Positions 2,469 through 64,000 of a stretch of DNA of 64,000 nt are shown piece by piece (position 1 is the first letter of the stretch; the number at the start of each line of letters is the position of its first letter). The notes beneath the pieces were generated by a model. The model had not been told where the DNA came from, did not search any database, and saw nothing but the letters and a program-made list of their open reading frames with translations. The stretch is from Escherichia phage UPEC01. A program made the translations under genes and the position numbers. The stretch is taken from the sequence record MW233709. One strand, given 5' to 3'.

Positions 2469-5183
2469 ATGCAAGAATTTTATTTAACTATCGAACAAAT
2501 CGGTGACAACCTACTCGAACGATATATTGACAAGAATGGTCATGAACGTGTTCGTGAAATCCCTTATGCTCCATGCTTGTTTATGCACGCCCGCGAAGAC
2601 CAAGCTGCAAAGTATACAGACATCTATAATAAAGGTTGTGTGAAAAAAGAATTCGATTCCATGCGTGATGCATCCCAGTGGATGAAGCGAATGAATGACA
2701 TGGGTCTCGAAGCTATGGGTATGGACGACTTTAAACTCGCATACTTGTCCGACCGTTACCCACACGAAATCAAATATGATTCAAGTAAAATCCGTGTTGC
2801 TAACTTCGATATCGAGGTGACATCTCCTGATGGGTTCCCTGAACCGTCTGAAGCACGTCACCCTATTGACGCCCTGACGCACTATGATTCGGTAGACGAT
2901 AAATTCTATGTCTTTGACCTTTTGGGCTCACCATACGCCACTGTGGAGCAATGGTCTATTGATATTGCTGCTAAGCTGCAGGAAGACGGTGGTGATGAAG
3001 TCCCGGAAGAAATCCTGGAAAAAATTGTTTATATGGCTTTCGATTCAGAAGAAGAAATGCTCCAGCAGTATTTGGTATTCTGGAACGAGAAAACTCCGGT
3101 TATGTTAACTGGTTGGAACATCGAGAAGTTTGATATTCCATATATCTACAACCGCCTTAAAAATGTATTTGGTGAAGCTACAGCAAAACGTCTGAGCCCA
3201 CATCGTCGTACAAAAGTTAAGGTCATTAACAACGGCTTTGGCGAAGAACAAGAAATCATTCAGATTCTGGGTATCTCTGTTCTGGATTATCTGGACCTGT
3301 ATAAAAAGTTCAGCTTCACAAACCAACCGTCTTATTCGTTGGATTATGTTGCGGAATCTGAACTGGGTGTTGGTAAACTCCCGTATGATGGCCCGATTTC
3401 TAAACTGCGCGAATCAAATCACCAGCGGTATATTTCTTATAACATCATCGACGTTTATCGTGTTGTGCAGATTGACCGTAAGCGACAGTTTATTAACCTG
3501 AGTCAGTCAATGGGTTATTACGCAAAAATGCAGATTCAGTCTGTATTCAGCCCAATCAAAACTTGGGATGCGATTATCTTTAACAGCTTGAAGACTCAAA
3601 ACAAAGTTATTCCGGAAACCAAATCGCATGTTCGCCAATCGTTCCCTGGTGCATTTGTTAAGGAACCTATTCCGAACGCATACAAATATGTAATGAGCTG
3701 TGACTTAACATCTCTGTATCCGAGCATCATCCGACAGATTAACATCAGTCCAGAAACGATTGCCGGGTCATTTGCGCCAGCCCAGATGTATGAATACATC
3801 GCAGGAACTGCTGACCGTCCATCTGATACATTTAGTTGTGCTCCAAATGGTATGATGTATTTTAAAGATGTTGCGGGTATTATTCCGACAGAAGTCACCA
3901 AGGTGTTTAATCAGCGTAAAGAGCACAAAGGCTATATGCTTGCGGCTCAACGTAATGGTGAACTGATTAAGGAAGCTCTGCGTAATCCAGGAACTGGCAC
4001 AACCGAACCAGAAGTTGATTATCGTCATGACTTTGATGACAATATGAAAACGACCCTGCATGGTCTGAATCAAACAGTCCTAAATGGTATGCTGTACAAA
4101 GCGCAGATGGAAGAAGTTGCAGGCATGACCGCACAGATTAACCGTAAACTGCTTATCAACAGTTGTTATGGCGCTCTGGGTAATATCTGGTTCCGTTACT
4201 TTGACCTGCGAAATGCAACCGCGATTACATCTTTCGGACAACTTGCACTGCAGTGGATTGAGCGTAAAGTTAACGAATACTTCGATAGTGTTTGTGGTAC
4301 AAGCGGTGAAACTTATGTGTTCTATGGCGATACTGACTCCATTTATATCCAGTGCGATAACCTGATTAAAAAGGTTGGTGGCGAATCTAAATTCCGCGAT
4401 ACAAACCACCTGGTTGACTTCATGGACAAGTTTGCGAAAGACCGTCTGGAACCGGCAATCGATAAAGCTTTCCGTGAGCTGGCTGAATACATGAACAACA
4501 AACAGCACCTTATGTTTATGGACCGTGAGGCGATTGCATGTCCTCCGCTGGGTTCGAAGGGTGTGGGTGGATTCTGGACGGCGAAGAAGCGTTATGCGTT
4601 GAACGTGTACGATATGGAAGGCACACGTTATGCTGTTCCAAAATTGAAAATCATGGGTCTGGAAACTCAAAAGTCGAGTACTCCAAAGGCATGTCAGAAA
4701 GCTCTGAAAGAATGCATCCGCCGTATGCTGCAAGAAGGTGAAGAATCTCTGCAGACATACTTCAAGGAATTCAATAAGGAATTTAATGAGCTTAACTACA
4801 TGACCATCGCAGGGGTATCATCGGTTAACAACATCCAGAAATATAATGAAGGTGGTTTCCCTGGATTTAAGTGCCCGGCTCATATCAAAGGTGTGCTTGC
4901 ATATATGCGTGCAACTAAAGGTCTGAAGACTGTTCCGCAAATCATGGAAGGGGAAAAGGTGTATGTACTTCCTCTTAAAGTCGGCAACCCATTTGGTGAA
5001 ACCGTGATTGCATGGCCATCAGGGATTGAACTCCCGATTGAAATTCGTGACCAAGTCTTGCAGTGGATGGACTACAACACACTGTTCCAGAAGACTTTTG
5101 TCAAACCGTTAACAGGTTTCTCTGAAGCTGCAAAGGTTGATTACGAAAAGAAAGCAACTCTTTTTGATATGTTTGACTTTTAA
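2469..5183 (+). CDS. 43: DNA polymerase gp43 (family B)
   Basis: 904 aa; exonuclease and polymerase motifs incl. YGDTDS, KKRYA, SLYPSII. Confidence 0.97.
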   Translation: MQEFYLTIEQIGDNLLERYIDKNGHERVREIPYAPCLFMHAREDQAAKYTDIYNKGCVKKEFDSMRDASQWMKRMNDMGLEAMGMDDFKLAYLSDRYPHEIKYDSSKIRVANFDIEVTSPDGFPEPSEARHPIDALTHYDSVDDKFYVFDLLGSPYATVEQWSIDIAAKLQEDGGDEVPEEILEKIVYMAFDSEEEMLQQYLVFWNEKTPVMLTGWNIEKFDIPYIYNRLKNVFGEATAKRLSPHRRTKVKVINNGFGEEQEIIQILGISVLDYLDLYKKFSFTNQPSYSLDYVAESELGVGKLPYDGPISKLRESNHQRYISYNIIDVYRVVQIDRKRQFINLSQSMGYYAKMQIQSVFSPIKTWDAIIFNSLKTQNKVIPETKSHVRQSFPGAFVKEPIPNAYKYVMSCDLTSLYPSIIRQINISPETIAGSFAPAQMYEYIAGTADRPSDTFSCAPNGMMYFKDVAGIIPTEVTKVFNQRKEHKGYMLAAQRNGELIKEALRNPGTGTTEPEVDYRHDFDDNMKTTLHGLNQTVLNGMLYKAQMEEVAGMTAQINRKLLINSCYGALGNIWFRYFDLRNATAITSFGQLALQWIERKVNEYFDSVCGTSGETYVFYGDTDSIYIQCDNLIKKVGGESKFRDTNHLVDFMDKFAKDRLEPAIDKAFRELAEYMNNKQHLMFMDREAIACPPLGSKGVGGFWTAKKRYALNVYDMEGTRYAVPKLKIMGLETQKSSTPKACQKALKECIRRMLQEGEESLQTYFKEFNKEFNELNYMTIAGVSSVNNIQKYNEGGFPGFKCPAHIKGVLAYMRATKGLKTVPQIMEGEKVYVLPLKVGNPFGETVIAWPSGIELPIEIRDQVLQWMDYNTLFQKTFVKPLTGFSEAAKVDYEKKATLFDMFDF

Positions 5184-22936: not shown

Positions 22937-22966
22937 GTGTACAAACTCGTGGGGCCAGAGTATAAT
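22937..22966 (+). promoter_or_regulatory. early-type promoter with -10 inside a palindrome
   Basis: GTGTACAA ... gtggggccagagTATAATggtcccac. Confidence 0.5.
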
Positions 22967-23008
22967 GGTCCCACTGGAGAATAAACTTATTAATCAAGAG
23001 AGAAAATT

Positions 23009-23500
23009 ATGAAAGTTGAAGCTGGTGATATTGTACGCGTTTCTAAAGAATCTCGTTCTAAAGCTGCTGGTCGTTTTGTTGAGGTTGTGGGTCTTCGCAC
23101 TAATTTAGTAGGTGGAATTAAAGAAGTTAAAGTGCGTATTATTCCTAAAAATGGCCAGACTGAAACTCAATTGGCTTATGTACATCCTAAATTCCTGGAA
23201 TCAACTGAATTTACTGGATATATCGCTCCTGTGGTTGAAGAAGTTGAAACCATTGACCAGTCTCATGTTGGGGTTGATTTTAAATGGAAATTAGGTAAAG
23301 GTGTCTTTTTCGTTTCACCTAAACCGTTTGAATACAATTGCAAGTATGGTCCGACTTATGAAACCACTAGCATGTCTGGTTATATCACAGACCAGTGGGT
23401 TGAAGAAGGGGTTAAACTGTATAATATTGTGTTCCTTGGAACCTTTAAGGTTGTTCCTGAAAGTTTTATCGTTGAGTATGCTGATATTCATTTTGCCTAA
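23009..23500 (+). CDS. hypothetical protein (163 aa), paralog of 22177 C-terminal domain
   Basis: ...TDQWVEEGVKLYNIVFLGTFKVVP. Confidence 0.55.
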   Translation: MKVEAGDIVRVSKESRSKAAGRFVEVVGLRTNLVGGIKEVKVRIIPKNGQTETQLAYVHPKFLESTEFTGYIAPVVEEVETIDQSHVGVDFKWKLGKGVFFVSPKPFEYNCKYGPTYETTSMSGYITDQWVEEGVKLYNIVFLGTFKVVPESFIVEYADIHFA

Positions 23501-23550
23501 ATTATAAAATAATGATAGGGTAATTTTGCCCTATCAATGAGGAGAATATT

Positions 23551-23781
23551 ATGTTTAATGAAGATTGCGTGACCACTTCCCTGACCGCTGAAGAGTTCTG
23601 GGAAACCGCTGAAAGTGATAAAGTGATTGTTAAGAAAAACATCAATGAATTTCTTTGCACCACTGATATCATTTATGTGTATGCGTATGAAGGCGCGGAA
23701 TTACCTAGCTATGCACTGTTCCGTGAAGAATCAGAAGATGGCACAGATTTTTGGAAGGAGACTTATCATGTTGAAATTTGA
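23551..23781 (+). CDS. hypothetical acidic protein (76 aa)
   Basis: ORF with GAGGAG RBS. Confidence 0.45.
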   Translation: MFNEDCVTTSLTAEEFWETAESDKVIVKKNINEFLCTTDIIYVYAYEGAELPSYALFREESEDGTDFWKETYHVEI

Positions 23782-24142
23782 AACTGATAAATGGTATTAT
23801 TTTAAAGATAATGTTGCTGAAAGCAGATTTCGTTTGTTATGCTCTGATAATGATAATATAGCTGATGCTATAATCAATGGTGAAGGATTTAGACCAGTCG
23901 GAATTGAAGGTGGTGATGTATATCGGATAGAATTTTCGACCGGTGGAATAGAGAGAATATTCATAAAGGAAGATGAGCGTCGTTTCTTTGAAGAAGAAAA
24001 AGATGACGATACTGAAGACGAATGCGAAGACGCTGATGAAGCATTTGAACCAAGCGAATTCCCTTTGACTAAAATCACCATTTCTAATAACTCTGAAGCC
24101 TGGACCGTTTACCAGATGTTGAAAGCACACTTTAAGGAATAA
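23768..24142 (+). CDS. hypothetical protein with strongly acidic C-terminal segment
   Basis: 124 aa from ATG 23768; EEEKDDDTEDECEDADEAFEPSEFP. Confidence 0.45.
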   Translation: MLKFETDKWYYFKDNVAESRFRLLCSDNDNIADAIINGEGFRPVGIEGGDVYRIEFSTGGIERIFIKEDERRFFEEEKDDDTEDECEDADEAFEPSEFPLTKITISNNSEAWTVYQMLKAHFKE

Positions 24143-24143
24143 C

Positions 24144-24320
24144 ATGCCACTTTATGATTACAAATGCCAATCCAATGACTGCGCGAAAGAATACGAAAAA
24201 ATCAAGAAAATCTCTGAAAGAGATAATGATGTTTGCCCTGATTGCCATCGGCTGGCTGTTCGGTTAGTCTCGGCTCCTAAACATGTTAATGGCGGTTTTT
24301 ACGACCTGCTGACTAAGTGA
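24144..24320 (+). CDS. zinc-ribbon protein (FmdB-like CxxC...CxxC)
   Basis: 58 aa MPLYDYKCQSNDC...CPDCH. Confidence 0.5.
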   Translation: MPLYDYKCQSNDCAKEYEKIKKISERDNDVCPDCHRLAVRLVSAPKHVNGGFYDLLTK

Positions 24321-24326
24321 GGAATT

Positions 24327-24587
24327 ATGAAATACATTAATCGTTCTATTGCAGCACTGGTACTGGCGGTTTCATTGGCTGGTTGTACTGATGCAGATAA
24401 TGCCATTCGTGTATTAGATGCAAACGGCTATGAGCAAATCCAAATCACCGGATATAATTGGTTCTCTTGCGGTAAAGATGATTTTCAACACACAGGTTTT
24501 ACAGCCGTGGGCCCAACTGGTAAGAAAGTTGAAGGAACCGTTTGTTCTGGATTGCTGTTTAAGAATTCAACCATCCGATTCGAATGA
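24327..24587 (+). CDS. putative lipoprotein (86 aa)
   Basis: Signal peptide and lipobox LAGC. Confidence 0.5.
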   Translation: MKYINRSIAALVLAVSLAGCTDADNAIRVLDANGYEQIQITGYNWFSCGKDDFQHTGFTAVGPTGKKVEGTVCSGLLFKNSTIRFE

Positions 24588-24594
24588 GGATATT

Positions 24595-24993
24595 ATGTTT
24601 AAAATTGGAAAGAGTTATTGCATTAAAGATTTAGATGGCTTCCTTAAACATGTCGGTATGCCTGGTAGCATTTTGAACCAACAAGGAACCTCTATCATTG
24701 ATTTGGTTACTACCAAAGAGTTTTCAGTCACTAAGATGGAAGCAAATGTTGTTACGGAATTTAGTACTATAGATGGAACTGGATTTTCTTTCCATAGTCG
24801 TAATGGAACCGGTCTTATTTTTGGTGATGAATTTAAATATTTTGAAGAAGTCCCGGAATGTGATTCTGAAATAACCGAACAGGAATCAAAAGAGGATATC
24901 GTTGTTACCGGCGGCGATGTTATTATTACGGTTAAAACTGAAGCCGGCCGTCTACAAGCTATTAAAATGTTAGAGCAGCTTCGATTCAAATAA
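24595..24993 (+). CDS. hypothetical protein (132 aa)
   Basis: Start ATG 24595 with GAGGA RBS; track start 24418 overlaps previous gene. Confidence 0.5.
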   Translation: MFKIGKSYCIKDLDGFLKHVGMPGSILNQQGTSIIDLVTTKEFSVTKMEANVVTEFSTIDGTGFSFHSRNGTGLIFGDEFKYFEEVPECDSEITEQESKEDIVVTGGDVIITVKTEAGRLQAIKMLEQLRFK

Positions 24994-25012
24994 AAGGCCT
25001 TCGGGCCTTTTT
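24993..25012 (+). terminator. intrinsic terminator hairpin
   Basis: aaaggccttcgggcctttttg. Confidence 0.65.
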
Positions 25013-25036
25013 GCTTTAAAATATGTGACTTATAAT
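25010..25036 (+). promoter_or_regulatory. candidate middle promoter (MotA box TTTGCTTTA + TATAAT) for gene 39
   Basis: TGCTT 14 nt upstream of TATAAT; T4 gene 39 is MotA-dependent. Confidence 0.5.
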
Positions 25037-25058
25037 ACCTCCATACACAAGAGGAAAG

Positions 25059-26891
25059 ATGATGATTAATAATGAAATTAAAGTACTCTCGGACGTCGAG
25101 CATATCAAAAAACGTTCCGGGATGTATATTGGTTCCAGTTCAAATGAAGCGCATGAGCGATTCTTGTTTGGTGAATATAAGTCTGTAAGCTATGTTCCTG
25201 GTATTGTAAAACTGATTGATGAAATTATCGATAACTCTGTTGATGAAGCAATTCGCACCAGTTTTAAATTTGCCAATAAAATTGATGTTCAAATTAAAGA
25301 TAATCAGATTTCGGTTTCTGATAATGGTCGTGGTATTCCTCAAGCAATGGTTACAGACCAAAACGGTGAACAAATCCCTGGCCCTGTTGCAGCATGGACT
25401 ATTCCAAAAGCCGGTGGCAACTTCGGTGATGATGCTGAACGTAAAACTGGCGGGATGAATGGTGTCGGGTCTTCTCTGACCAATATTTTCTCTGTATTGT
25501 TCACCGGGATTACCTCTGATGGAGCAAACGAAATTACTGTTAACTGCTCCAACGGTATGGAAAACAAAGGTTGGTCCACCAAGAAATCTAAGGGCAAAGG
25601 TACAACTGTTATATTTGTTCCAGATTTTAGTCACTTTGAAGAAAATAGTCTGTCCCAGATTTATCTGGATATTACATTGGACCGTTTACAGACTCTCGCG
25701 GTTGTTTATCCGGATATTCAGTTCACCTTTAATGGTAAAAAGGTTGATGGTAATTTCAAGAAGTTCTCCAAGCAATTCGGAACCGAAGTTGTTATCCAGG
25801 AAACTGATACAGTATCAATGGCTTTTACGACCAGCCCGGATGGTTTCCGTCAGTTGACTTATGTCAACAACATTCATACAAAGAATGGCGGACACCACGT
25901 TGAATGTGTTATGGATGATATCTGTGAACACCTTCAGCCTGCGATTAAGCGCAAATATAAAGGCATCGAGGTGACCAAGGCACGAGTTAAAGAATGCCTC
26001 ACCATGCTTATGTTCATCCGCGATATGAGCAACATGCGATTTGATTCCCAGACCAAGGAGCGATTGACTTCTCCGGCTGGTGAAATTCGAAATCACATTA
26101 AGATTGATGCTAAGAAAATCGCACAAGCTATTCTGAAAAATGAACCGCTGATTATGCCGATTGTTGAAGCTGCATTGGCTCGTAAATTGGCTGCAGAGAA
26201 AGCAGCAGAGACCAAGGCGAATAAGAAAGCTTCGAAGGCCAAGGTGCAGAAACACATCAAGGCAAACGAATGGGGCAATGATAAGCTGGAAACGACTCTA
26301 TTCCTGACCGAAGGGGATTCTGCAACTGGTCCATTTATCAAGGTTCGCGACCGTGAATTGCAAGGTGCTTATCCATTACGTGGTAAGTTTAAAAACACAT
26401 GGGGTCTGAAAGCTGTTGAAGTTATGAAGAACGCTGAAGCCTTTGATGTGTGTGCAATTACTGGGTTAACGATTGGACAACCGGCCGAGAATATGAATTA
26501 CCGAAACATTGCTATCATGACAGATGCGGATGTGGATGGTGTCGGTAGTATCTATCCATCGTTATTGGCGTTTTTCAGTAACTGGCCAGAGTTGTTCCAT
26601 GAAGGACGAATTCGCTTTGTGAAAACACCTGTTATTATTGCACAGCTCAAAGATAAACAAGAATGGTTCTATTCTCTTCCTGACTATGAAGAAGCTAAGG
26701 ATAAACTTCCGAAGCACACCATCCGATATATCAAGGGGCTTGGTTCTCTGGAAGATTCCGAGTACAAACGCGTATTGCTCGAACCGGTATTCGAAGTTGT
26801 TCAATTGCCCGACAACTGGAAAGAACTGTTCGAAATGCTATTCGGTAAAGATTCCCAGCAGCGTAAAGACTGGATGAATGCGACGCTATAA
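25059..26891 (+). CDS. 39: DNA topoisomerase II large subunit (gp39 fused with gp60 region; GyrB-like)
   Basis: 610 aa; GHKL ATPase motifs (IDNSVDEA, GMNGVGSS), TOPRIM region; continuous ORF without gene 60 split. Confidence 0.93.
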   Translation: MMINNEIKVLSDVEHIKKRSGMYIGSSSNEAHERFLFGEYKSVSYVPGIVKLIDEIIDNSVDEAIRTSFKFANKIDVQIKDNQISVSDNGRGIPQAMVTDQNGEQIPGPVAAWTIPKAGGNFGDDAERKTGGMNGVGSSLTNIFSVLFTGITSDGANEITVNCSNGMENKGWSTKKSKGKGTTVIFVPDFSHFEENSLSQIYLDITLDRLQTLAVVYPDIQFTFNGKKVDGNFKKFSKQFGTEVVIQETDTVSMAFTTSPDGFRQLTYVNNIHTKNGGHHVECVMDDICEHLQPAIKRKYKGIEVTKARVKECLTMLMFIRDMSNMRFDSQTKERLTSPAGEIRNHIKIDAKKIAQAILKNEPLIMPIVEAALARKLAAEKAAETKANKKASKAKVQKHIKANEWGNDKLETTLFLTEGDSATGPFIKVRDRELQGAYPLRGKFKNTWGLKAVEVMKNAEAFDVCAITGLTIGQPAENMNYRNIAIMTDADVDGVGSIYPSLLAFFSNWPELFHEGRIRFVKTPVIIAQLKDKQEWFYSLPDYEEAKDKLPKHTIRYIKGLGSLEDSEYKRVLLEPVFEVVQLPDNWKELFEMLFGKDSQQRKDWMNATL

Positions 26892-34508: not shown

Positions 34509-34682
34509 ATGAGACATTTCTTTACAATGGGTTACCTATTTGTTTTAGCCCTATTTGTTATTACAGGAGCCTTTATAGCCTTTGGTGCTCCATTTAATGA
34601 TAAAGTTGCTGTTACTATGTGCTTTAGTGGTGGGTATATCTGTTTTGAACGCTTATGCAAAATGTGTGGTATATATGAGTAA
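34509..34682 (+). CDS. small membrane protein (57 aa)
   Basis: ATG 34509 ([25 protein letters not shown]). Confidence 0.35.
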
Positions 34683-34755
34683 TTTCCATAACGAACATGT
34701 GATGCAATGGCATCGTCATAATCTGAAATTAACCGGCGTCTTCGGACGTCCTTGA
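34675..34755 (+). CDS. stp: Stp-like 26-aa peptide
   Basis: [26 protein letters not shown]; matches my recollection of T4 Stp (26 aa) in sequence, length and position next to ac/52. Confidence 0.55.
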
Positions 34756-34762
34756 GGAAAAT

Positions 34763-34918
34763 ATGAATAAATTTGTTCATGGTGTAGCTTTTTTCTGCTG
34801 GTCATTTTTATTTGTTGGAACATTAATAACTGGTGAAACTTCAGTATTTCTGCAGTCAACAGCTCAAGGTGTATTAGCAGTTTTATCACTATTTAAATTA
34901 TTGGATAAAAATGATTAA
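34763..34918 (+). CDS. small membrane protein (51 aa; ac-like by size/position)
   Basis: GAGGAAAA RBS; hydrophobic. Confidence 0.4.
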   Translation: MNKFVHGVAFFCWSFLFVGTLITGETSVFLQSTAQGVLAVLSLFKLLDKND

Positions 34919-35051
34919 GAAAATCCTGGGCTACTCGTTAGCCCTTGCTGCCTTATTGGTGGCGCTGTATTACGGAGTTGTGTTTGCGTTAGTGCAGGTT
35001 GTGCTTTTTATTTCTGATGCTATAATGGCGGTACATTCGTTAATCTGGTAA
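34911..35051 (+). CDS. small membrane protein (46 aa)
   Basis: overlapping ORF, hydrophobic. Confidence 0.3.
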   Translation: MIKKILGYSLALAALLVALYYGVVFALVQVVLFISDAIMAVHSLIW

Positions 35052-35059
35052 GGTGATAT

Positions 35060-36439
35060 ATGTCTGACGTTTTAAGTATGATGTCCAAACAGTTCAGTGA
35101 TTCCATGGGGACCCTTAACCCCCGCAGTCTAAAAGACATTATTGATGTGGAAGCATTGTCATATGCTATCTACACTGTGGAAGGTCGCGCCATCCCAAAC
35201 ATGATTGATGGTTTTAAACCAGTTCACAGATTTGTTATGGCGAGAGCATTAGACCTGGCGCGTGGTGATAAGAATAAATTCCATAAGGTTGCCTCCATTG
35301 CAGGTGGCGTAGCTGATTATGGTTATCACCATGGCGAAGCATCAGCGGAAGAAGCAACTTCTGGTCTGGTCGCAACATATAAAAATGAATACCCCATGTT
35401 TGATGGGCAAGGCAACTTTGGTTCCAGAATGGTGCCAGAAGCATCATCAGCTCGTTATGTATTCGCACGGGTTTCAAAGAACTTTTATAACTTGTTTAAG
35501 GATACAGAATATGCTCCGGTCCATCCTGATGAAGAACATAAGCCTCCTGCTTTTTATCTTCCTGTTATTCCTACTGTATTACTTAACGCCACTTCTGGGA
35601 TTGCTGTTGGCTTCGCTACTGATATTCTTCCTCATTCGTTCCAGGACGTCAAGGAAGCTGTTAAAGCTATCGTGGAAGGTCGTGAGCCGGTTGCTCCGAA
35701 AGTAAAATATCCAGAATTCCGCGGTAAAGTGGTTGAGCTGGAAGAGCCTGGTAAGTATGAACTTCATGGCACATACAAAATGACCTCCAGGACCCAAATG
35801 GAAATTACTGAAATCCCGGTCCAATGGAACCTGGAAAAGTATACAAGTAAAATCCTGGACCCGCTGGAAGAGAAAGGTTTTATCACCTGGAAAGATAACT
35901 GCGGCGAGCATGGTTTTGGGTTTAAGATTAAATTCCGCAAAGAATACAAGTTGGATGGTACCGAAGAAGAAAATCATGAAAAAATCATGAAAGACTTTGG
36001 TCTGATTGAGAAGCTCTCCCAGAACTTAACAGTGCTTAATCACAAAGGCAAGCTGGCTGAATACACCAACACGCTTGACCTGATTCGCGATTTCGTTGAT
36101 GTCCGTAAGACTTATGTTCAAGTGCGAATTGACAGTAAGATTAAAGAAACTGAAGCAGCATTTAAACTGGCCCGGGCAAAAGTCTTCTTTATTAAAGAAG
36201 TGATTGACGGTAAGGTTGTTATCCAGGGGAAACCTCGTAAGAAGTTGATTGAGGAACTCCAGGCGAGTGAAATATATGGCGATTATGCAGAGAAGTTAGT
36301 GGCGATGAACATCTACCATATGACCTCTGATGAAGCCAAGAAGCTTGCAGACGAAGCAAAGGCTAAGAAAGCTGAGCATGAGTACTGGAAGACAACTGAT
36401 GTTAAAACTGAATACCTTAATGATTTGGAGGCTCTATGA
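35060..36439 (+). CDS. 52: DNA topoisomerase II medium subunit gp52 (GyrA-like)
   Basis: 459 aa; KPVHRFVMARALDL breakage-reunion region with catalytic Tyr context. Confidence 0.93.
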   Translation: MSDVLSMMSKQFSDSMGTLNPRSLKDIIDVEALSYAIYTVEGRAIPNMIDGFKPVHRFVMARALDLARGDKNKFHKVASIAGGVADYGYHHGEASAEEATSGLVATYKNEYPMFDGQGNFGSRMVPEASSARYVFARVSKNFYNLFKDTEYAPVHPDEEHKPPAFYLPVIPTVLLNATSGIAVGFATDILPHSFQDVKEAVKAIVEGREPVAPKVKYPEFRGKVVELEEPGKYELHGTYKMTSRTQMEITEIPVQWNLEKYTSKILDPLEEKGFITWKDNCGEHGFGFKIKFRKEYKLDGTEEENHEKIMKDFGLIEKLSQNLTVLNHKGKLAEYTNTLDLIRDFVDVRKTYVQVRIDSKIKETEAAFKLARAKVFFIKEVIDGKVVIQGKPRKKLIEELQASEIYGDYAEKLVAMNIYHMTSDEAKKLADEAKAKKAEHEYWKTTDVKTEYLNDLEAL

Positions 36440-61884: not shown

Positions 61885-63017
61885 TTGAATTATATGATAA
61901 CTTAATGAAGCTTTGCGCCGAATCCGATAAAGGTAAGTTTTTCTATACGGATTTTGTTTCTCCATTTGAAACTAAGTTCCGCATCTTTAGCTATAACTAT
62001 GCTTCCTATAGTGATTGGCTTCTTGATGATGCGCTGGAGTGTCGTGGCATTATGTTTGAAATGGATGACAATGGTCCAGTTCGCATTGCCGCCCGTCCTA
62101 TGGAAAAATTCTTTAATCTGGGTGAGAATCCAATGACCATGGACCTTAACCTTGATGAGGTTGTCCTGGTTACTGCAAAAGCTGATGGTAGCTTGGTTTC
62201 TACTTATATGGACCAGACTAATATCGCCTTTAAATCCAAAGGGTCAATCAAAAGCTCCCAAGCTGCTGAATCCTTGCAGGTGTTTAAACAAGAGCATCGC
62301 AGTGCATTCAGGGCTCGCGTAACTGAAATCACTGAAGCTGGTTATACATGCAATATGGAATATGTTGCACCAACCAACCGCATTGTTTTGCCTTACCAGG
62401 AACGTGACCTGATTTTACTGAACGTTCGCCATAATGAAACTGGTGAATATATTCCTTATCAGGAACTGTTCAAAGATGCTGCGCTCCGTCCTTTCCTGGT
62501 TGAAGCATATGACCCGGCGAGCATTGAGAATGTTCGTGGTATGAAAGAGATTGAAGGCTTCGTCTATGAGCTGGCAAGTGGTCAGAAGTTCAAGATGAAA
62601 ACAGAATGGTATTGTGCTCTGCATCATACTAAAGACTCCATTAATAATAATGAGCGACTGTTTGAAGTTGTTGTTGCTGGCGGGGCAGATGATGTTATTG
62701 CCATGTTTACTGGCGATACTTATGCTCGCGAAAAAGTTAATGCCTTTACTGTAACGCATCTGGATTATCTGTCCAATACATTGGGATTGTTGCTTGATGC
62801 TCAGAAACAACTGGCAGGAAAAGACCGACGCGAGTTTGCGATTAAAGGTCAAGAGTTGTGCAAACCATACCCGGGATTGTTCTCCGTATTAATGAACACC
62901 TATCAACGCCCACAGGAAACTGAACAAACGATTGCTCAAATCAATAAAGTTTTCCTTAAAAATCATAAACTTTACATTCCGTCGGACTACCAAGCGGAAG
63001 TAATCCTTCCTGAATAA
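61881..63017 (+). CDS. 63: RNA ligase 1 / tail fibre attachment protein gp63
   Basis: 378 aa; FRIFSYNYASYSDWLL.DALECRGIMFEMD, nucleotidyltransferase lysine motif KADGSL. Confidence 0.9.
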   Translation: MIELYDNLMKLCAESDKGKFFYTDFVSPFETKFRIFSYNYASYSDWLLDDALECRGIMFEMDDNGPVRIAARPMEKFFNLGENPMTMDLNLDEVVLVTAKADGSLVSTYMDQTNIAFKSKGSIKSSQAAESLQVFKQEHRSAFRARVTEITEAGYTCNMEYVAPTNRIVLPYQERDLILLNVRHNETGEYIPYQELFKDAALRPFLVEAYDPASIENVRGMKEIEGFVYELASGQKFKMKTEWYCALHHTKDSINNNERLFEVVVAGGADDVIAMFTGDTYAREKVNAFTVTHLDYLSNTLGLLLDAQKQLAGKDRREFAIKGQELCKPYPGLFSVLMNTYQRPQETEQTIAQINKVFLKNHKLYIPSDYQAEVILPE

Positions 63018-63027
63018 TAAAAAAGGG

Positions 63028-63056
63028 GTGTACAAGCCCCTCCTTTCTATACATAA
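63028..63056 (+). promoter_or_regulatory. early-type promoter
   Basis: GGGGTGTACAA ... CATAAT then GGTTCCATCAACTACTGATGAGGA leader. Confidence 0.45.
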
Positions 63057-63088
63057 TGGTTCCATCAACTACTGATGAGGACTAAAAC

Positions 63089-63322
63089 ATGTTAAACTTA
63101 ATTACAAATGAAAGAGTTACACAGGCATATGGTGACAGTAATGACGGAATCTATGTCTACAAGGGAGACCGCCGGATTGGTTTCATTACTGACCTGAAGG
63201 CCAAATTGTTAAAAGAACTGAAAGCTCAAACAGGTGATTCTGGGTTTAGAGCAAGAGCCAAAAAGAAAGATGAACGCCTGGGTGCCAACTCTTTTGGTCC
63301 CCGGGGTTACAACCGCTACTAA
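63089..63322 (+). CDS. hypothetical protein (77 aa), paralog of N-terminus of next ORF
   Basis: YGDSNDGIYVYKGDRRIGFITDLKAKL vs YGDRHDGIYVYKGTKKIGLMTDLRKKL. Confidence 0.45.
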   Translation: MLNLITNERVTQAYGDSNDGIYVYKGDRRIGFITDLKAKLLKELKAQTGDSGFRARAKKKDERLGANSFGPRGYNRY

Positions 63323-63335
63323 TGAGGAAAATATT

Positions 63336-63839
63336 ATGGATATGCAACTGATTTCAAATGAAATGATTGTCAATGAATATGGTGACCGTCATGACGGAAT
63401 TTATGTCTATAAAGGGACCAAGAAAATTGGTCTCATGACTGACTTGCGGAAAAAACTCGCCTCCGATAAAAAGTTGAAGGCGAAACAAAAAGAATATCGT
63501 GATAAAAAATCAGAAGAGCGGAAAGAAGCACTGCATGAATCTGTTCCTGAAATGGTTGACTTCTTAAAGAACCATTTGGTTAAATATGATGCAGAAGTGT
63601 TCATCAATCAGACCCAACCTAATGTGCATATCAATGGATGTGTTTGTTATGTTGTGGTTGAACCCCTGACACTTCAACACCGTCTGGGAATTAAACACCC
63701 AGTGTTGACCCAGGATGATATGGCGGATGAAGTTGGTAATCAGTTCCGCATTTCAGCATCTGACAGTACAAATCACATCCTCCTGAATGGTTTATCCCAG
63801 GATGATATTGTTGAGGTAATCATCAAGTTATGCAAATAA
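63336..63839 (+). CDS. Alc-like protein (by size and position)
   Basis: 167 aa from ATG 63336 (same length as T4 Alc), directly after gene 63 as in T4; sequence unverified. Confidence 0.45.
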   Translation: MDMQLISNEMIVNEYGDRHDGIYVYKGTKKIGLMTDLRKKLASDKKLKAKQKEYRDKKSEERKEALHESVPEMVDFLKNHLVKYDAEVFINQTQPNVHINGCVCYVVVEPLTLQHRLGIKHPVLTQDDMADEVGNQFRISASDSTNHILLNGLSQDDIVEVIIKLCK

Positions 63840-64000
63840 GTAATCTCACTGCAGGGCTTATGCTCGCCCTGGTAGTAACTGCTGGTAGTGGTTTCTATCT
63901 AAAAGCAAAAGTGGATAATCTCAAGACAGCGGTGGCGGAAGTCACCAAAGTCGCAGAAGATAATGCGAAAAATCTACAATCAGTAAAAGACCAGGTTAAT
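63830..64000 (+). CDS. i-spanin-like protein, N-terminal fragment (3' end outside window)
   Basis: N-terminal TM helix LTAGLMLALVVTAGSGFYL followed by coiled-coil-like sequence; T4 pseT.3 position. Confidence 0.35.
   Translation, partial: MQISNLTAGLMLALVVTAGSGFYLKAKVDNLKTAVAEVTKVAEDNAKNLQSVKDQVN

Follow-up and report, generated by a model that had tools for sequence, protein, structure and literature searches.

A conserved stand-alone paralog of the Alc N-terminal module lies directly upstream of alc in Gaprivervirus phages

The question at stake at the locus described here is how the 19-kDa Alc protein makes RNA polymerase terminate solely on unmodified cytosine DNA. Alc causes termination on cytosine DNA and spares modified DNA, and the host paf mutations affect R368 and P372 of the RNA polymerase beta subunit, at the mouth of the main channel (PMC2988021, PMC2939025); the mechanism of Alc has been stated as not known (PMC2988021). 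We analyzed a stretch of 64,000 nucleotides from Escherichia phage UPEC01 (record MW233709), referred to below as the window, whose last kilobase holds two open reading frames on the same strand, 63089-63322 (77 aa, ORF1) and 63336-63839 (167 aa, ORF2). The original prediction for this locus proposed that ORF2 is Alc, judging by its length and position, and that ORF1 is a stand-alone paralog of the Alc N-terminal domain. What, then, is ORF1, how did it arise, and what might the N-terminal module of Alc do by itself? The genes concerned are as follows.

63089 to 63322, plus strand: alcB-like gene (ORF1), 77 aa, 8.7 kDa, pI 9.9, with the C-terminal motif RLGANSFGPRGYNRY
63336 to 63839, plus strand: alc (ORF2), 167 aa, assigned from Pfam ALC, an AlphaFold2 model and synteny with RB51 and JS98
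63830 to 64000, plus strand: start of a pseT.3-like i-spanin gene, which shares 10 nt with the end of alc, stop codon included, and continues beyond the window

Database searches found Alc homology in both ORFs. ORF2 gave an end-to-end match to the Pfam ALC family (PF17527; E=7e-49), scoring 166.3 bits where the cut-off is 25, with residues 1-166 aligned to profile positions 1-176 of 177, and it matched phrog_1253 at E=1e-73. Its position corresponds to that of T4 alc, the order in the window being rnlA (gene 63), ORF1, ORF2 and pseT.3, and that in RB51 and JS98 being rnlA, a 64-nt spacer, alc and pseT.3; the pseT.3-like assignment follows the annotation of the orthologous gene in SP18, VR7 and PSD2001. 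ORF2 shares with T4 Alc its length of 167 aa, the rnlA-alc-pseT.3 synteny and all conserved motifs, and its predicted identity as Alc is borne out. ORF1 aligned by BLASTP with residues 3-62 of ORF2 (48% identity over 64 aa, E=2e-16) and exceeded the Pfam ALC cut-off by itself (42.5 bits, E=7e-11), although only at profile positions 3-62 of 177; the BLASTP score and the passing of the cut-off place the resemblance between the two proteins far beyond chance. End to end, ORF1 also matched phrog_17715 ("inhibitor of host transcription", 77 positions) over residues 1-77 with E=2.9e-53. In an alignment of 24 family members, it retains all of the N-domain columns that are invariant (I6, G16, D20, G21, I22 and G32), as well as the near-invariant D36 and L37. 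By its sequence, ORF1 is a homolog of the Alc N-terminal module and not a full member of PF17527, in agreement with the paralogy that had been proposed.

The AlphaFold2 model of Alc was built with 24 family sequences and reached a pLDDT of 92.5. It consists of a predicted N-domain (aa 1-33, with a helix at 8-15 and a hairpin at 23-33), a predicted long charged helix (34-80) and an alpha/beta C-domain (87-166). The model of ORF1 has the same N-domain (aa 1-32) and a short helix (33 to ~46) at pLDDT above 90, and drops to low confidence (pLDDT ~50) after residue ~50, so that its tail is presumably disordered. Alignment and models agree that the C-terminal alpha/beta domain with its F-I-N-x-T-Q-P-N-V motif is present in ORF2 and absent from ORF1. 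Relative to T4 Alc, ORF1 has the N-terminal module (profile positions 3-62) with every invariant residue, but it lacks the C-terminal domain (FINxTQPNVHING... onward) and most of the long helix, and it carries a novel tail. No structural relatives of the Alc N-domain were found, nor any sequence relatives of Alc among solved structures. The predicted structure of the C-domain weakly resembles the C-terminal "double-wing" DNA-binding domain of T4 MotA (PDB 5jlt, 6k4y), at ~10% sequence identity and with modest scores, the Alc side of the comparison being a predicted structure only; the N-terminal domain of MotA is unrelated to the Alc N-domain. The modeled likeness weakly suggests that the C-domain may be the DNA-reading part of Alc. 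From its charged composition, the long helix appears unlikely to dimerize as a coiled coil.

The arrangement of ORF1 and alc has the anatomy of a tandem repeat with a unit of ~247 nt.

63057 to 63303, plus strand: repeat unit 1, the distal alc leader with its Shine-Dalgarno sequence plus about 70 codons; boundaries approximate
63304 to 63553, plus strand: repeat unit 2, a leader remnant followed by the first ~70 codons of alc; boundaries approximate

The 30 nt before alc (63306-63335) and the 30 nt before ORF1 (63059-63088) agree at 20 of 30 positions, and an ungapped 30-mer comparison of the two upstream regions gave at best 21 of 30, a score that none of 500 shuffles reached. The leader remnant in the second unit now encodes residues G73-Y77 of ORF1, the stop codon and the alc Shine-Dalgarno sequence. 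The same echo occurs in a divergent contig, L024 (described below), where AACAAGT..GAGG stands upstream of the ORF1 ortholog and again at its 3' end. The spacer that precedes ORF1 aligns as the ortholog of the leader, with promoter, found before alc in RB51 and JS98, and only its Shine-Dalgarno-proximal part recurs before alc; ORF1 in Gaprivervirus occupies the rnlA-alc gap found in T4-type (RB51) and JS98 genomes. Taken together, these comparisons indicate that ORF1 goes back to an old, partial tandem duplication in which the alc leader and ~70 codons were copied. The original prediction had ORF1 duplicate the first ~45 residues of Alc; a duplication is upheld, but its extent was underestimated, as homology continues to about residue 63-72 and takes in about 30 nt of leader. 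We regard the duplication as old because the copies are only ~60% identical and the N-terminal part of ORF1 is about equally close to the Alc of other genera, its identity being 41-61% with N-domains from many genera and 52% with the N-domain of its neighbor. These identities, together with the sharing of the arrangement by a distant lineage, rule out a recent local duplication. Recent gene conversion between the copies is likewise ruled out, since the in-register nucleotide identity of the coding parts is just 60-61% for both of the alc alleles found within the genus.

The signals that might govern expression of the pair are listed below.

63024 to 63041, plus strand: terminator-like hairpin AGGGG-TGTACAAG-CCCCT with a T-rich run, just after the rnlA stop; consensus scan
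63029 to 63057, plus strand: promoter-like site of sigma-70/T4-early type, TGTACA-17 nt-CATAAT; consensus scan, activity putative
63077 to 63081, plus strand: Shine-Dalgarno sequence GAGGA of ORF1, 7 nt ahead of the ATG; 20 of 21 genomes conserve it
63324 to 63328, plus strand: Shine-Dalgarno sequence GAGGA of alc, 7 nt upstream of its ATG and right after the TAA TGA double stop of ORF1

Counterparts of the promoter-like element are GTTTAC...TATAGT upstream of RB51 alc and GTTTAC...CATAAT upstream of the ORF1 ortholog in L024. The consensus scan found no promoter-like site on the plus strand between ORF1 and alc, and the 13-nt spacer between them is invariant among 21 genomes, which together point to a putative bicistronic early message with ORF1 as its first cistron. 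The hairpin is a pattern match only, with two terminator-like hairpins found in the region against 2.3 expected. Its loop encloses the -35 hexamer of the putative promoter, and it is not obvious in the leaders of RB51 and JS98.

Several public records (MW250787, PP693301, PQ671644) annotate Alc with an N-terminal extension of 20-34 residues that overlaps the small gene (188-201 aa in all; 63234-63839 in the window). A longer Alc of 189-201 aa, or a fusion of ORF1 and alc by programmed frameshift, was considered and rejected: the upstream extension of the alc frame is broken by a stop codon in one of the related genomes (L009) and amounts to only seven codons in L024, and substitutions that leave the ORF1 protein unchanged alter amino acids in that frame. 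As the extension is unconserved and interrupted in some genomes, the ATG at 63336 is the real start of alc.

Whether ORF1 is itself a functional gene was examined by aligning the window with 20 related loci (21 Gaprivervirus genomes in all), with changes counted as the minimum needed. The comparison with related phages suggested along with the original prediction finds the extra ORF intact, at 77 aa, in all 21. Over its whole length there are 16 synonymous and 7 non-synonymous changes (per-site ratio ~0.13; binomial P=2e-6), and in the tail alone (aa 46-77) the counts are 11 and 2 (per-site ratio ~0.06; P=8e-6), making the tail the most strongly constrained part of ORF1 within the genus; for alc the counts are 44 and 15 (omega ~0.09; P=8e-19). 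One double change in the tail, from CCC CGG to CCT AGA, leaves Pro-Arg in place. These counts indicate that ORF1 is a genuine gene under purifying selection, and we refer to it hereafter as alcB.

Two further features of the alignments deserve mention. In a metagenomic, Gaprivervirus-like ENA contig (L027, k141_9694, positions 1501-1728), alcB carries a 35-nt deletion equivalent to 63253-63287 of the window, which frameshifts the conserved tail, after which the ORF runs across the alc start; if the deletion is not an artifact of assembly, there may be conditions in which the tail is not needed. In addition, the first ~190 nt of alc (63300-63520 in the window) form a divergence hot spot within the genus when compared with SP18 (L004) and VR7 (L005). 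Two alleles of this 5' part exist, with 67-87% identity per 30-nt bin and dS of 0.6-1.1, whereas alcB and the remaining 3' part of alc are ~93-100% identical (dS ~0.06). By its pattern, the divergent segment looks like a short recombination patch, and the SP18-type allele is nearer to the outgroup L024.

The tail of AlcB consists of a basic stretch followed by a C-terminal motif, and the pattern RLGxNSFGPxGxNx[YF] is common to AlcB and its L024 ortholog. The family alignment shows no counterpart of this motif in Alc, no further copies occur elsewhere in the window, and no match was found among solved structures. The original prediction described a divergence into a basic tail; the tail is indeed basic (pI 9.9 for the protein), but it is not merely so, given a motif that is conserved in a distant ortholog. 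The strong conservation of this novel C-terminal motif argues that AlcB is more than a passive decoy.

The distant ortholog, P0042 (78 aa), comes from a metagenomic contig of 1.8 kb, L024, on which rnlA is followed by alcB and then alc. It shares 45% identity with AlcB, ungapped over the full length, and matches phrog_17715 at E=4.9e-20 (residues 3-78 on profile positions 2-77), which identifies it as a true ortholog; identities to the window are 55% for rnlA, 77% for Alc and 45% for AlcB. We found no isolate that represents this lineage. The retention of the same length and tail motif in L024 provides independent evidence for function. AlcB with its C-terminal motif thus stands directly upstream of full-length alc in all 21 Gaprivervirus loci, the window included, and in L024.

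When 1.84 billion representative proteins were searched exhaustively with an HMM, only 33 belonged to the Alc family, and the genuine stand-alone N-module genes among them are the AlcB cluster and P0042. Two other short hits were rejected: P0038 looks like a frameshifted T4-type alc, and P0052 is the N-terminal half of a split alc. In the latter case, on a single Logan contig (L025, SRR10769897, positions 2894-3431), an N-module ORF of 61 aa and a C-domain ORF of 111 aa, 16 nt apart and in different frames, together make up an alc homolog; sequencing may have introduced the frameshift, or the gene may be truly split or a pseudogene. In P0053 and P0055, and on an ENA contig (L026, positions 198-725), the Alc N-module and a basic helix are fused to an unrelated, low-complexity C-terminus, in a gene that lies two genes upstream of a dCMP deaminase gene. 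The P0053 fusion, and the occurrence of the module as a separate ORF beside a C-domain ORF in L025, indicate that the N-module is portable and is found in more than one architecture.

The gene pair as such is not new. Over 62900-64000, Escherichia virus TH41 shows 100% identity to the window, and about 33 further phages (VR7, VR20, VR25, VR26, SP18 and relatives) show 92-99%; their records assign these phages to Gaprivervirus of the Tevenvirinae, and the window belongs to this genus (the VR7/SP18 group). The record of Shigella phage SP18 (GQ981382, deposited in 2010) names the pair alcb/alca and describes alcb as "similar to N-terminal region of bacteriophage JS98 Alc", and the VR7 record names the small gene VR7ORF243c, "similar to T4 Alc". 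These two entries and phrog_17715 represent the same gene as ORF1, and the SP18 protein is 100% identical to it; their labels are based on similarity and carry no analysis of function, origin or selection. In many other records the small gene is a hypothetical protein, and in some it is mislabeled. In PQ765507 (Escherichia phage 212, L017), the product names in 75-2784 are displaced by one gene, an annotation error by which denA is called ribonucleotide reductase beta subunit, rnlA endonuclease, alcB RNA ligase and the spanin inhibitor of host transcription. In the literature library searched, no paper was found on the function of alcb and none on the structure of Alc, and no NCBIfam model matched. 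What the present analysis adds to these annotations is the anatomy of the duplication, the evidence for selection, the conserved tail motif, the second lineage and the domain model.

The distribution of alcB is narrow. In a translated search, the full 77-aa AlcB was found in only 34 phage records out of 50,697, each belonging to the VR7/SP18 group, while ~760 other T4-like records matched solely through the N-terminus of their own Alc; a word-indexed protein search returned AlcB as one 90% cluster (38 members) and one variant. This group differs from the setting in which T4 Alc acts, which is defined by the gene 42 hydroxymethylase. Gaprivervirus has no recognizable gene 42, the dCMP hydroxymethylase gene being reported missing with alc, denA, denB and gene 56 kept (PMC12115623, PMC8056088). 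The annotation of VR7 (L023, 1-45000) is consistent with this: gene 42 and beta-gt are missing between uvsX and imm, and alpha-gt is missing between genes 47 and 55 (22953-25345 and 34641-35676 inspected), whereas the gene 56 dCTPase is kept. Restriction analysis of VR7 DNA nonetheless indicates modified, unglycosylated cytosines (PMC6326788). Among isolates, then, AlcB is confined to the one genus of the Tevenvirinae with an unexplained cytosine modification; a link to the modification chemistry is suggestive, and only suggestive because the correlation comes from a single clade.

These observations lead us to favor, tentatively, the reading that AlcB may be an early gene product that docks on the partner of the Alc N-domain and modulates Alc or RNA polymerase. 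The duplicated gene would have kept the ancestral alc promoter and leader and would so have become the first cistron of an alcB-alc message, and the reading frame of the truncated copy enters the duplicated leader and stops in the alc ribosome-binding region. The resulting protein retains the predicted N-domain fold and the start of the helix and has lost the C-domain, the putative sensor of cytosine versus modified cytosine; new to it is a predicted disordered tail with a conserved peptide motif at its end. AlcB would then dock where the Alc N-domain does, with the host RNA polymerase beta subunit, at the paf site, as the most probable partner. Without a C-domain it would cause no termination itself, and might instead tune or compete with Alc at the polymerase, or place its tail motif there. 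Here we infer the promoter, the co-transcription, the binding partner and the direction of any effect on Alc. The original suggestion that ORF1 could modulate the interaction of Alc with RNA polymerase in a dominant fashion, or act as a decoy in it, is plausible on the same sequence grounds, and fits the retained N-domain residues, the missing C-domain, the putative co-transcription and the purifying selection. Some points sit less easily with docking and modulation, however. If AlcB were a pure competitor, producing it from the message that also yields Alc would seem self-defeating; the novel tail motif is strictly conserved, which points to an added role rather than to plain competition; the L027 deletion destroys the tail (if it is not an assembly error); and promoter and terminator are consensus matches only.

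Another reading, which we consider somewhat unlikely, is that AlcB would be a neofunctionalized effector independent of Alc, its N-domain serving only as a docking handle on RNA polymerase or another host protein. With a similar degree of doubt, the tail peptide would in that case be the active part and block or recruit some other host factor, for instance a defence sensor or a factor for elongation or termination. The excess of synonymous changes in the tail (omega ~0.06), the survival of the motif in L024 at 45% overall identity, the predicted disorder that is usual for short linear motifs, and the absence of the motif from Alc and from the rest of the window are all consistent with such an effector. 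However, the motif matches no solved structure that would point to a partner; the final five codons of alcB coincide in part with the alc ribosome-binding region, and their conservation may partly act at the RNA level; and the one natural variant, L027, is without the tail. A further reading, which we hold to be quite unlikely, is that of a specificity adaptor: AlcB would associate with Alc through the N-domain or helix and adjust which DNA Alc spares; just as improbably, the adjustment would fit Alc to the cytosine modification of Gaprivervirus, non-glucosylated and made without a gene 42 homolog. In its favor are the confinement of AlcB to the 34 Gaprivervirus records, the lack of gene 42, alpha-gt and beta-gt at the syntenic sites of VR7, the missing hydroxymethylase gene reported for the genus in two comparative papers (PMC12115623, PMC8056088), the modified yet unglycosylated cytosines of VR7 DNA (PMC6326788) and the hot spot of divergence in the segment encoding the Alc N-terminus (dS 0.6-1.1 against 0.06). 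The long Alc helix, however, is highly charged with few hydrophobic positions, atypical for a dimerizing coiled coil, AlcB haplotypes do not co-vary with the Alc N-terminal alleles, the same AlcB standing beside both, and the correlation derives from one clade. It is very unlikely that AlcB is a small basic nucleic-acid binder split off from Alc, akin to the nucleoid-unfolding function "unf", with a tail that binds DNA or RNA. The pI of 9.9-10.1, the 12 Lys/Arg in residues 33-77, the Arg, Gly and aromatic residues of the disordered tail and the historical mapping of the unf phenotype to T4 alc would suit such a protein (alc and unf are established as one T4 gene, for which PMC2939025 cites its reference 32), but no nucleic-acid-binding fold was detected. 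Finally, a truncated copy left by duplication, with a frameshifting deletion in one contig (L027), might be a non-functional relic, a 5' fragment of alc open by chance. This is extremely improbable and is effectively excluded by the selection data: the synonymous excess over the whole ORF is strong (P=2e-6), the ORF is intact in 21 of 21 genomes, its length and motif are retained in L024, where rnlA is only 55% identical, and it has a conserved Shine-Dalgarno sequence of its own.

A docking modulator of the kind that we favor has parallels among cellular regulators. Dominant-negative "microProteins", such as Id acting on bHLH factors and plant LITTLE ZIPPER acting on HD-ZIPIII factors, form dead-end dimers with their parent proteins. 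AlcB would resemble these in consisting of an interaction module only, in having arisen by duplication and truncation, and in being putatively co-expressed with its full-length relative; it differs in that no oligomerization of Alc is known, in that the likely shared partner would be RNA polymerase, and in that it has an extra conserved motif. A bolder version, which we think unlikely, is that AlcB would be a microprotein acting on the Alc site of RNA polymerase, with a conserved tail that re-tunes the Alc-type discrimination of host and phage DNA in a lineage whose cytosine is modified although it has neither the classical hydroxymethylase nor glucosylation. If true, this would establish the N-domain as the RNA polymerase handle and the MotA-like C-domain as the sensor of DNA modification, and would provide the first domain-level mechanism for Alc, whose action has been unexplained since 1993.

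As the gene is already annotated by similarity in public records, we regard the present findings as a modest, well-defined lead and not as a discovery. Their value is that a natural, selectively kept paralog with only the N-module amounts to a ready-made dissection of Alc. Should AlcB prove to contact RNA polymerase at the paf site, the N-domain would be the handle and the MotA-like C-domain the candidate DNA sensor.
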